Shown in pieces: positions 1-8,410 of a DNA stretch of 13,542 nucleotides. Position 1 is the stretch's first letter. The number at the start of each line of letters is the position of its first letter. The position numbers were made by a program, and so were the translations under genes. Source of the stretch: a virus (lineage: Duplodnaviria > Heunggongvirae > Uroviricota > Caudoviricetes); IMG/VR virus record IMGVR_UViG_2690315994_000027, positions 1 to 13,542 of that record; one strand, written 5' to 3'. Under the pieces are notes generated by a model. That model ran no database searches. It was not told the origin of the DNA and saw only the letters and a list, made by a program, of their open reading frames with translations.

Positions 1-342
1 ATGATGAAAAAAAGTATTCTGGCGTTTCTGTTACTCACCAGTTCTGCAGCGGCGCTGGCTGCACCGCAGGTGATTACCGTCAGCCGTTTTGAAGTGGGTA
101 AAGACAAATGGGCGTTTAATCGCGAAGAGGTGATGCTGACTTGCCGACCGGGTAATGCTTTGTATGTCATCAACCCAAGTACCCTCGTGCAGTATCCTTT
201 AAACGATGTCGCACAGAAGGAAGTTGCCAGTGGGAAGACTAAAGCCCAACCCATTTCGGTGATTCAGATTGATGATCCCAACAATCCCGGCGAAAAAATG
301 AGTCTGGCACCGTTTATAGAACGAGCTGAAAAACTCTGTTAA
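1..342 (+). CDS. yebY: Periplasmic DUF2511-family protein (YebY-like), host chromosomal gene
   Basis: 113-aa ORF with typical signal peptide ([22 protein letters not shown]); matches my recollection of E. coli YebY; stop TAA at 340-342 followed by hairpin terminator; lies next to SdsR as in the K-12 pphA-ryeA/B-yebY locus. Not searched. Confidence 0.7.
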
Positions 343-371: not shown

Positions 372-413
372 AAAAAAACCGCCTCAGTTCTTTCACCAGA
401 ACGGGCGGTTTTT
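372..413. terminator. Bidirectional intrinsic terminator downstream of yebY
   Basis: A-tract 372-378, stem CCGCC 379-383 / GGCGG 404-408 with inner GTTCT 387-391 / AGAAC 398-402 pairing, T5 409-413. A-run on one side and T-run on the other make it usable in both directions. Confidence 0.55.
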
Positions 414-486
414 AACATTTAAGCTGATGACCACCGCGCTTTTTATTGACCATTTTGCACGCAAACTGGAAAGCCTGGCGTCGTCA

Positions 487-497
487 TCTATTCTTAA
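487..497 (+). promoter_or_regulatory. Sigma-S type -10 element (TCTATTCTTAA) for SdsR
   Basis: Sequence resembles the RpoS -10 consensus TCTATACTTAA; sits 4-6 nt upstream of the proposed sRNA 5' end at about 501; no good -35, as is common for sigma-S promoters. Confidence 0.45.
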
Positions 498-500
498 AGG

Positions 501-603
501 GCAAGGCAACTAAGCCTGCATTAATGCCAACTTTTAGCGCACGGCTCTCTCCCAAGAGCCATTTCCCTGGACCGAATACAGGAATCGTATTCGGTCTTTT
601 TTT
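501..603 (+). ncRNA. sdsR: SdsR (RyeB) RpoS-dependent small RNA
   Basis: About 103 nt non-coding stretch beginning GCAAGGCAACTAAGCCTGCATTAATGCC and ending in a perfect terminator hairpin plus T8; matches my memory of E. coli SdsR/RyeB and its genomic context beside yebY. Boundaries approximate. Confidence 0.6.
571..603 (+). terminator. Intrinsic terminator (3' end of SdsR)
   Basis: Perfect 9-bp stem ACCGAATAC 571-579 / GTATTCGGT 587-595, 7-nt loop, then CTTTTTTT 596-603. Confidence 0.75.
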
Positions 604-604
604 A

Positions 605-631
605 ATTGTATTTAAAATCAATCAGTTGCAA
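605..631 (-). promoter_or_regulatory. Predicted minus-strand sigma70 promoter, candidate promoter of the antisense RNA RyeA/SraC
   Basis: On the minus strand: -35 TTGCAA (plus 626-631), 15-16 bp spacer, -10 TACAAT (plus 605-610). A transcript would run antisense across SdsR toward the bidirectional terminator at 372-413 (about 225 nt). Confidence 0.3.
616..628. promoter_or_regulatory. IHF consensus site in the attL P' arm
   Basis: AATCAATCAGTTG fits WATCAANNNNTTR exactly; lies between the presumed core (SdsR 3' end) and the tandem arm repeats, like H' in lambda attP. Confidence 0.45.
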
Positions 632-636
632 ACGTC

Positions 637-668
637 TCCCCGAAATTCCCCGAAATTTACTCGAATTT
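637..668 (+). repeat. Three tandem ~10-bp direct repeats, candidate integrase arm-type binding sites
   Basis: CCCCGAAATT at 637-646 and 647-656, degenerate third copy ACTCGAATTT at about 658-668; located 70-100 bp downstream of the int stop codon, analogous to lambda P'1-P'3. Confidence 0.45.
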
Positions 669-734
669 CTGTATTCCGGTCTTTTTTGGTTATATCACAA
701 CCAAAATACATTTAACAATCCATTTACGTTAAAA

Positions 735-7081: not shown

Positions 7082-7125
7082 AAAAAGGGGCGGCAGGGCA
7101 GCCACGGAGTAGAACTGATGCCGCC
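7082..7125 (-). terminator. Possible weak terminator for leftward transcription (tL-like)
   Basis: On the minus strand: GGCGGCA ... 23-nt loop ... TGCCGCC then CC and T5 (plus A5 at 7082-7086). Long loop and CC spacer make it weak. Confidence 0.25.
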
Positions 7126-7250
7126 AAAGACTACACATAGCAATTGTCGTTATTTACAACCGGAGGCGCACTCCCACCATTTAAATTTAACAGACAAGAC
7201 CGACTCTTTATGAATACCGGAAATGCGCCTTCGTGTTGTGCGCCTGTCTT

Positions 7251-7507: not shown

Positions 7508-7691
7508 TTGCTTCTGTAGCGGCATGAACAACTGTTTTTGCCGCCTCTTCAACTTCCTTGTCTGGACGACCAGCCTTTACTTTTTCTGCAATGACATCCA
7601 GCACAGTTGGAAGAACCTTGCTAATAAGCATGGCTGCCACATCTTTGCTGCACAATTGACCGTTAATAACAACCAGATCTTCACCAACCAT
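7473..7691 (-). CDS. Hypothetical 72-aa protein, first gene downstream of the predicted leftward early promoter
   Basis: ATG at 7691 with AAGGGG and 7-nt spacing; A/V/E/K-rich composition; the track's longer version begins with TTG at 7748. 3' end overlaps the convergent 64-aa ORF by 35 bp. Confidence 0.4.
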   Translation of the reverse strand: MVGEDLVVINGQLCSKDVAAMLISKVLPTVLDVIAEKVKAGRPDKEVEEAAKTVVHAATEAIILKSLVSPKP

Positions 7692-7865
7692 CTTTTTTCC
7701 CCTTAACGCCGGGTGGCGGAACGTTTTATCTACTGCGCTTTGTATCAATCAACAACTGCCGTCATGTTCGTATGCCTCAGGCTGGCTACTTAGCCCTGTT
7801 CAGTGGCTGGATAACTCGAGGAATTGTCCAGCCGTTCTCTGGTGGGGCGTTGTTTGGATATGCTT

Positions 7866-7894
7866 ATTAAACACAATACGTTTTCTTATGTCAA
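7866..7894 (-). promoter_or_regulatory. Predicted leftward early promoter (pL analogue)
   Basis: Minus strand: perfect -35 TTGACA (plus 7889-7894), 17-bp spacer, -10 TTTAAT (plus 7866-7871); overlapped by two copies of the operator-like motif. Confidence 0.5.
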
Positions 7895-7907
7895 CACGAA
7901 ATGTGTT
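7870..7907. promoter_or_regulatory. Two operator-like 15-bp sites (OL analogue), centres 23 bp apart
   Basis: AACACGAAATGTGTT at 7893-7907 (palindromic arms AACAC/GTGTT) and AACACAATACGTTTT at 7870-7884; same motif and spacing as at the rightward promoter. Confidence 0.45.
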
Positions 7908-7936
7908 TTGTGGTGGATGTCATATGATGATGGTAC

Positions 7937-7960
7937 AAAAAAGCCCGCTGATAGCGGGCT
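7937..7960 (-). terminator. Intrinsic terminator of the repressor gene
   Basis: Stem GCCCGCT 7943-7949 / AGCGGGC 7953-7959 with 3-nt loop; on the minus strand followed by T6 (plus A6 at 7937-7942); 32 nt downstream of the repressor stop. Confidence 0.7.
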
Positions 7961-7990
7961 GATTGGCATATTACTGTGATAGCAAGATCA

Positions 7991-8410
7991 TTACTCCGGT
8001 GGGGGATTATCTTTAAGCCTGCCTCTCAAATATTTTTCTACATACTCATCGATTTCTTTTAGCCGGACTTCAAATAGCTCAATCATTCGTTGTTGTTCTG
8101 AGCCCGGTAGCTGGTTAAACAACTCAAGAAGTTTTCGTTGGGATTCATTTAACCACAATTCAGAAGATTCCTGTTCTCCAAAGAGGAGCTCAGGAGGAGA
8201 TATGCCAAGTGCCTTTCCCAATACGACAGCGTCATGCACTCCAACATTTCTGCTGCCCGCCTCATAGTTACCTATACGCGATTGCGTCCATCCGCAGATT
8301 TCAGCAAGTTTTCCTTGAGATAAACCAAGCTTCTGCCTGCGCTCTTTAAGACGCATTGCAATTTTGTCATTGAGCCTACTAGCGGCAATTTTTTCGTTTT
8401 CTTTTTCCAT
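7991..8410 (-). CDS. Phage repressor, XRE/Cro-C1-type HTH, no S24 peptidase domain
   Basis: 139 aa; HTH segment LKERRQKLGLSQGKLAEICGWTQSRIGNYEAG; divergent from the Cro-like gene; no Ala-Gly / Ser...Lys autocleavage module recognisable in the C-terminal half. Confidence 0.85.
   Translation of the reverse strand: MEKENEKIAASRLNDKIAMRLKERRQKLGLSQGKLAEICGWTQSRIGNYEAGSRNVGVHDAVVLGKALGISPPELLFGEQESSELWLNESQRKLLELFNQLPGSEQQRMIELFEVRLKEIDEYVEKYLRGRLKDNPPPE

Follow-up and report, generated by a model that had tools for sequence, protein, structure and literature searches.

What becomes of an antisense RNA when a prophage integrates between its promoter and its body, and does the phage bring a promoter in return? 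The question is raised by a stretch of 13,542 nt (IMG/VR record IMGVR_UViG_2690315994_000027; hereafter the window), in which the small RNA genes sdsR (ryeB) and ryeA of E. coli adjoin a prophage. SdsR and RyeA are regarded in the literature as toxin and antitoxin of an RNA-RNA pair. When the ryeA promoter is active, transcriptional interference also represses sdsR and, downstream of it, pphA (PMC6610125). An earlier note on this DNA had proposed that the prophage replaces or supplies the RyeA promoter by means of two hexamers in its attachment arm. The features discussed below are collected in Table 1.

Table 1. Features of the sdsR/ryeA locus and of the adjoining prophage arm, in window coordinates
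Feature	Position	Strand	Basis or remark
yebY CDS (host)	1..342	+	ORF list; RefSeq annotation of matching K-12 and FDAARGOS_946 loci
Bidirectional intrinsic terminator	372..413	both	ends yebY (+) and RyeA (-)
RyeA host-derived body, crossover to terminator	372..588	-	about 98-99% identity with K-12 ryeA
SraC/RyeA Rfam match	607..463	-	RF00101, 176.6 bits (gathering score 37), model positions 1-145
SdsR (RyeB) sRNA	504..603	+	Rfam RF00111, 118.1 bits (gathering score 38)
att core, common to attL/attR/attP/attB	578..604		ACAGGAATCGT[A/G]TTCGGTCT[T/C]TTTTTA
Candidate -10 TACAAT	610..605	-	phage DNA; ATTGTA on the plus strand; also in free phage attP
IHF consensus site, H' equivalent (predicted)	616..628	+	AATCAATCAGTTG, match to WATCAANNNNTTR
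Candidate -35 TTGCAA, 15-bp spacer	631..626	-	phage DNA; palindromic hexamer
Alternative -35 TTTGCA, 16-bp spacer	632..627	-	phage DNA; reported by consensus scan
Three tandem arm-type repeats	637..666	+	TCCCCGAAAT, TCCCCGAAAT, TTACTCGAAT; direct repeats
Second core-like repeat GTATTCCGGTCTTTTTTG	671..688	+	compare core at 587-603; conserved in pPE4 and ZC-S1
Tyrosine integrase, 358 aa	735..1811	-	Pfam Phage_integrase (PF00589), Phage_int_M, Arm-DNA-bind_1 (PF09003)

The RNA pair and the prophage junction

The earlier note had named the two RNAs as SdsR and RyeA, and strong Rfam matches for both confirmed this identity. RyeA runs opposite to sdsR, overlaps all of it and lies downstream of yebY. 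In K-12, ryeA is annotated with a length of 272 nt and its 5' end lies 38 nt beyond the 3' end of sdsR; three starts and the -10 element have been mapped and the sigma-70 promoter has been validated (PMC6610125, Choi et al. 2019). The K-12 promoter region reads TGGACT-N19-TATGGT. The start of the Rfam RyeA model at 607 was considered as a transcription start site and rejected, as it disagrees with the mapped K-12 start, 38 nt past the 3' end of sdsR. The 5' end of the Rfam SraC_RyeA consensus (AAUUAAAAAAAG) is exactly the phage-type junction at 596-607 of the minus strand, where K-12 has AGAUAAAAAGAG, and the 5' boundary of the RF00101 model falls inside the candidate -10 hexamer of the window.

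The bidirectional terminator proposed at 372-413 folds on both strands, with predicted hairpin energies of -19.8 kcal/mol on the plus and -20.0 kcal/mol on the minus strand (z -6.1 and -4.6, respectively). The hairpin is flanked by an A run on the left and a T run on the right, the minus strand carries a U7 run at 378..372, and alignment showed the same sequence in K-12. The RefSeq annotation of K-12 ryeA ends at window position 370; the mapped 3' ends of K-12 RyeA (+261 to +270) fall at window 381-372, and its termination was Rho-independent in vitro (PMC6610125). Since these mapped ends coincide with the hairpin, 372-413 has been correctly identified as the RyeA terminator. SdsR has its own terminator hairpin at 569-597.

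Alignment of the window with K-12 is near-perfect up to position 604 and meets unrelated sequence from 605. The segment 300-604 is matched by 5426/5426 complete E. coli genomes; the uninterrupted K-12 junction was found in 5191 of these 5426, and the integrase arm of the window follows position 604 in 228 of them. The core was defined by aligning the attL of the window, the attR of the lysogen FDAARGOS_946, the attB of K-12 and the attP of the phages pPE4 and ZC-S1. In the last 16 bp before 604, the window differs from K-12 at two positions, A589 (K-12 G) and T598 (K-12 C); over the 45 nt of 560-604, the prophage-free E. coli matches listed show, as K-12 does, 95.6% identity, which equals two mismatches. 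The attP bears A and T at these positions, as the window does, and the attR bears the host G and C. An attL with the phage variants and an attR with those of the host place the crossover within 578-588, and everything from 589 rightwards can be assigned to phage DNA. The last ~15 nt of SdsR (589-603) thus come from the phage, as its copy of the att core. Comparison of these junctions identifies 578-735 as the attL of a lambda-type prophage integrated in the last ~25 bp of sdsR. SdsR stays intact on integration, its near-identical 3' end being supplied by the phage.

Further genomes show the other states of the site. The free phage genome PP818812 is 97% identical in the int/att region, and the Salmonella phage ZC-S1 (OK490361) 72.6%; in both the attP is visible. 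In the lysogen FDAARGOS_946 the other end of the prophage adjoins pphA, where the host G/C variants are followed by K-12 sequence. In the prophage of the window the early region is Rac-like and Int carries a lambda arm-binding domain; xis, ralR, recT and recE lie behind int, as annotated by RefSeq in a locus of 99.6% identity. PP818812.1 is labelled 'Actinobacillus phage vB_Apl-pPE4' with Actinobacillus pleuropneumoniae as host; its attP core equals the 3' end of the enterobacterial sdsR and the host label looks doubtful.

The two phage variants change SdsR of lysogens from G to A (589) and from C to U (598) within its terminator and U tail, and its U tract then runs to seven U without a break, with possible effects on termination or on the binding of Hfq. 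The predicted stem energy of the SdsR terminator gave no sign of a strengthening by A589/T598, as it is unchanged at -15.8 kcal/mol. Other RNAs were detected further inside the prophage. The RalA antitoxin RNA is complete at 2169-2347 on the plus strand (Rfam, 221.5 bits) and is overlapped by the ralR toxin ORF at 2346-2552 on the minus strand, a type I toxin-antitoxin pair of the Rac type; a copy of the DicF sRNA lies in the early region at 7088-7139 on the minus strand (Rfam, 60.9 bits, gathering score 48).

Reading outwards from the core, the arm presents the IHF site, three arm-type sites and the 3' end of int, which is the canonical order of lambda. The site at 616-628 is the sole exact match to the IHF consensus WATCAANNNNTTR in the 13.5 kb window. 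It is matched by the lambda H' site ATCAATTTGTTGCAA, and in both GTTGCAA follows ATCAAT; in the ZC-S1 arm the consensus is conserved with changed N positions. The three repeats at 637-666 are probably the Int arm-binding sites P'1-P'3. Their counterpart in ZC-S1 is CCTCGAAATT, present three times, and repeats of the CCGAAAWT type recur in dozens of arms at the sdsR site. A direct repeat, CGGTCTTTTTT, occurs at 592-602 and 677-687. The integrase gene, which is also annotated in the 99.6%-identical RefSeq locus, is read in the direction of attL and of the RyeA body. The comparison with lambda covers the P' arm, the P arm lying outside the window: both share the element order, an almost identical IHF site (ATCAAT..GTTGCAA), three tandem arm-type sites, an int that converges on att and the arm-binding domain of Int, but differ in core and arm-site sequences and in the target, which is an sRNA terminator here and the gal-bio intergenic attB in lambda. 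In one related locus (IMG/VR UViG_2728369554_000022) the DNA between the T run of the core and the second core-like repeat is deleted. The candidate promoter is lost with it, as are the IHF site and the arm repeats, and the prophage is probably locked in.

Displacement of the native ryeA promoter

Alignment with K-12 revealed neither the native ryeA promoter nor the first ~37 nt of RyeA in the window. In the lysogen FDAARGOS_946 the native promoter and these ~37 nt are intact at attR beside pphA, ~43 kb away. Because homology to prophage-free E. coli ends at 604 and the native promoter lies at attR, the promoter region of RyeA has been replaced by the prophage. RyeA is cut by integration at about its nt 38-54, which leaves its body next to the phage P' arm. 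What remains has the same body as the native K-12 RyeA (272 nt), the same Rho-independent terminator and full complementarity to SdsR; unlike K-12 RyeA, it lacks the promoter and nt 1-37, and nt 38-54 are the phage copy with two substitutions. The proposal that the prophage replaces or supplies the promoter therefore stands as regards replacement, with the native promoter located at attR; as to its other half, supply of a promoter by the arm hexamers, their match was no better than chance (see below).

At the attR of FDAARGOS_946 (about 7680-8143 of locus L004) the displaced ryeA promoter faces the end of the prophage and is oriented antisense to pinE. The pinE gene itself points toward pphA and could give read-through transcription of pphA.

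Across Enterobacterales, dozens of different phage arms are joined to the sdsR core. Among the GTDB loci L127-L246, many species of this order have decayed phage arms directly after sdsR, with CCGAAAWT repeats and a second core-like copy, and often with an absent or fragmentary integrase; the RyeA-promoter side of the locus is thus made up largely of att-arm relics. A conserved native promoter, TGGAC(G/T)-N19-TATGGT, is visible in several flanks from species other than E. coli.

A change of RyeA by a prophage is not new, and its principle was established with the Salmonella phage phiW104, as far as the summary in PMC7380047 goes. According to this summary of Balbontin et al. 2008 (J Bacteriol 190:4075), phiW104 integrates in ryeB/ryeA, and RyeA decreases and RyeB increases in the lysogen. 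The attachment site is given there and in PMC3333887 as the last ~23 bp of ryeB (sdsR), internal to ryeA. Lysogeny swaps the 5' part of ryeA for phage sequence, and the locus is described in these two sources as a repeated insertion hot spot. The summary words ryeA transcription as 'decreased', not as abolished, which implies some transcription into RyeA from the phage side in Salmonella (PMC7380047). The prophage analysed here resembles phiW104 in having integrated in the terminal ~23 bp of ryeB (core at 578-604) and in the replaced 5' end of ryeA. Unlike phiW104, it resides in E. coli and has a Rac-like early region (recE, recT, ralR, kilR); the expression changes are those measured in Salmonella. 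Its arm is ~72% identical to that of ZC-S1, the one Salmonella phage arm compared. Integration hot spots adjacent to sRNA genes have been surveyed in E. coli (PMC3603311); apart from this general survey, our literature search retrieved no account of this E. coli prophage or of its candidate promoter. What appears to be new is the E. coli example, agreeing in layout with Salmonella phiW104.

The candidate promoter in the phage arm

The hexamers named in the earlier note, TTGCAA at 626-631 and TACAAT at 605-610 of the minus strand, are present at these coordinates. Their proposed overlap with the IHF site was likewise found, the consensus at 616-628 lying inside the spacer and the -35. As the hexamers also occur in the attP of the free phage, they are phage DNA. 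The earlier note had suggested comparing prophage-free strains for the same promoter; it is not there, as those genomes diverge at 605. A host-encoded candidate promoter was rejected on these two grounds. With a start at about 597-599 and the terminator at 372-413, the predicted RNA would have 217-228 nt and cover all of SdsR but its U-tail. The earlier note had put this transcript at roughly 225 nt.

If the arm is a functional sigma-70 promoter that starts near 597-599, it would produce a chimeric RyeA of ~226 nt ending at 372-413, and the prophage would give the locus a substitute antitoxin or antisense promoter with regulation of its own, for instance occlusion by IHF in stationary phase. 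We consider this possible, though rather unlikely. The candidate -10 has both critical bases, A2 and T6, and the spacer of 15-16 bp is acceptable, if short and without an extended -10. Between the candidate and the RyeA body there is no terminator, and the native promoter is certainly gone from the attL side. By position-weight scoring the candidate reaches 9.9 and the validated K-12 ryeA promoter 7.6, so that scoring of the sequence leaves room for activity. The same scoring, however, ranked the true ryeA promoter below another K-12 site that is not validated, which makes such scores weak evidence either way. Some modified RyeA is still made in Salmonella lysogens, as far as can be taken from the summary in PMC7380047.

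By the measures used here, the match itself did not exceed chance. A consensus scan of 1-1500 detected two promoter-like sites, compared with 2.9 +/- 1.7 in shuffled sequences; the candidate was the only one on the minus strand, with 9/12 consensus matches when the 16-bp spacer is used. In position-weight scoring, 16 sites of the window score equal to or better than the candidate, and its score was reached in 32% of composition-matched randomisations of the A/T-rich arm (589-735). Transcription from the candidate is predicted to start within a run of seven A. Homopolymeric starts favour reiterative, unproductive initiation through slippage. The -35 and the spacer are part of a consensus IHF site that is also found in lambda H', where a TATAAT lies nearby on the same strand at a non-promoter spacing. 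To our knowledge, no promoter has been described in the lambda H' site.

Comparison across related arms points both ways. The -10 TACAAT is kept in 18 of 20 close relatives; the other two have TGCAAT with the IHF consensus retained, and the critical -10 A (A-11) is lost there. The L087 arm, 70% identical, carries a similar element, TTGTAA-15-TAAAAT, at the same place. In the ZC-S1 arm (72% identical) neither hexamer is in register, the IHF and arm sites are retained, and a perfect TATAAT occurs 5 nt deeper in the arm but has no -35. The wider survey comprised 240 core-bearing loci from IMG/VR and GTDB genomes; 106 arms with phage-type repeats were kept, giving 33 non-redundant arms that were scored on both strands. 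It revealed no RyeA-strand excess of promoter scores over these 33 arm families (best 6.83 vs 6.83, Wilcoxon p = 0.92). The survey thus gave no sign of selection for a RyeA-directed promoter in phages that use the sdsR site. The presence of the element in the free phage further argues that it was not shaped for RyeA.

Most likely, the TTGCAA and TACAAT hexamers are by-products of an A/T-rich, IHF-binding recombination arm and not a dedicated RyeA promoter. At most, the arm may give weak, IHF-occludable transcription from the A7 run, yielding a RyeA of ~226 nt without its first ~43 nt. We therefore favour, with some reserve, an account in which the native ryeA promoter is displaced, the hexamers are incidental and at best weakly active, RyeA decreases and SdsR increases. 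Transcription of the RyeA strand across sdsR would fall, and less interference together with less RyeA-driven decay would leave more SdsR. The expected rise of SdsR follows from the findings that ryeA transcription interferes with the sdsR promoter and that RyeA promotes SdsR decay (PMC6610125). This net effect is the one given for Salmonella phiW104, with less ryeA and more ryeB (PMC7380047; also PMC3333887). At the same time pphA would lose its link to the sdsR promoter, by which it is normally driven.

Possible read-through from int and expected consequences of lysogeny

Any further RNA antisense to SdsR may come from read-through of int, which lies on the RyeA strand (735-1811). It is improbable, in our estimate, that such read-through provides most of the antisense RNA over SdsR. 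The int mRNA would then gain the RyeA body and terminator as a prophage-specific 3' UTR, and SdsR, which is abundant in stationary phase, would pair with it and bring about cleavage by RNase III, similar to the sib of lambda, but in trans and in the integrated state only. A scan of the minus strand revealed no terminator-like site between the int stop codon (735) and the core (604), and the next strong minus-strand terminator after int is that at 413..372. The SdsR hairpin, read on the minus strand, is followed by CAGGGAAAUG and has no U run. From this anatomy alone, int transcripts should reach 413..372.

The geometry mirrors that of lambda, where int is read across att into sib and is subject to sib retroregulation. 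RyeA/SdsR duplexes are substrates of RNase III (PMC3333887). The argument for int read-through is nevertheless purely anatomical. In a repressed prophage int is usually weakly transcribed, and Rho-dependent termination in the untranslated arm of 130 nt could block the transcripts before they reach RyeA.

We give similarly little credence to the extended proposal that both the int mRNA and arm transcripts carry a 3' UTR complementary to SdsR and that SdsR directs their cleavage by RNase III in stationary phase. If so, phage transcription would titrate the SdsR 'toxin', and transcripts reading through sdsR would enter int in antisense orientation and no longer drive pphA. The excision functions would then be subject to a retroregulation that depends on a host sRNA and is specific for the integrated state, like lambda sib but acting in trans. 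Displacement of the native promoter with incidental hexamers, a functional promoter in the arm, and read-through from int are not mutually exclusive.

The prophage is carried by ~4% of complete E. coli genomes (228/5426), and in these ~43 kb separate the native ryeA promoter from its target, and the sdsR promoter no longer leads into pphA. If transcription from the arm is low, lysogens should contain more SdsR and show altered control of pphA. Through tolC, mutS and yhcB, a higher level of SdsR would affect drug efflux, mutagenesis and the functions of the envelope. An active arm promoter would put RyeA under phage control in place of its native control. Either way, the locus offers a natural example of lysogenic conversion acting by way of sRNA genes.
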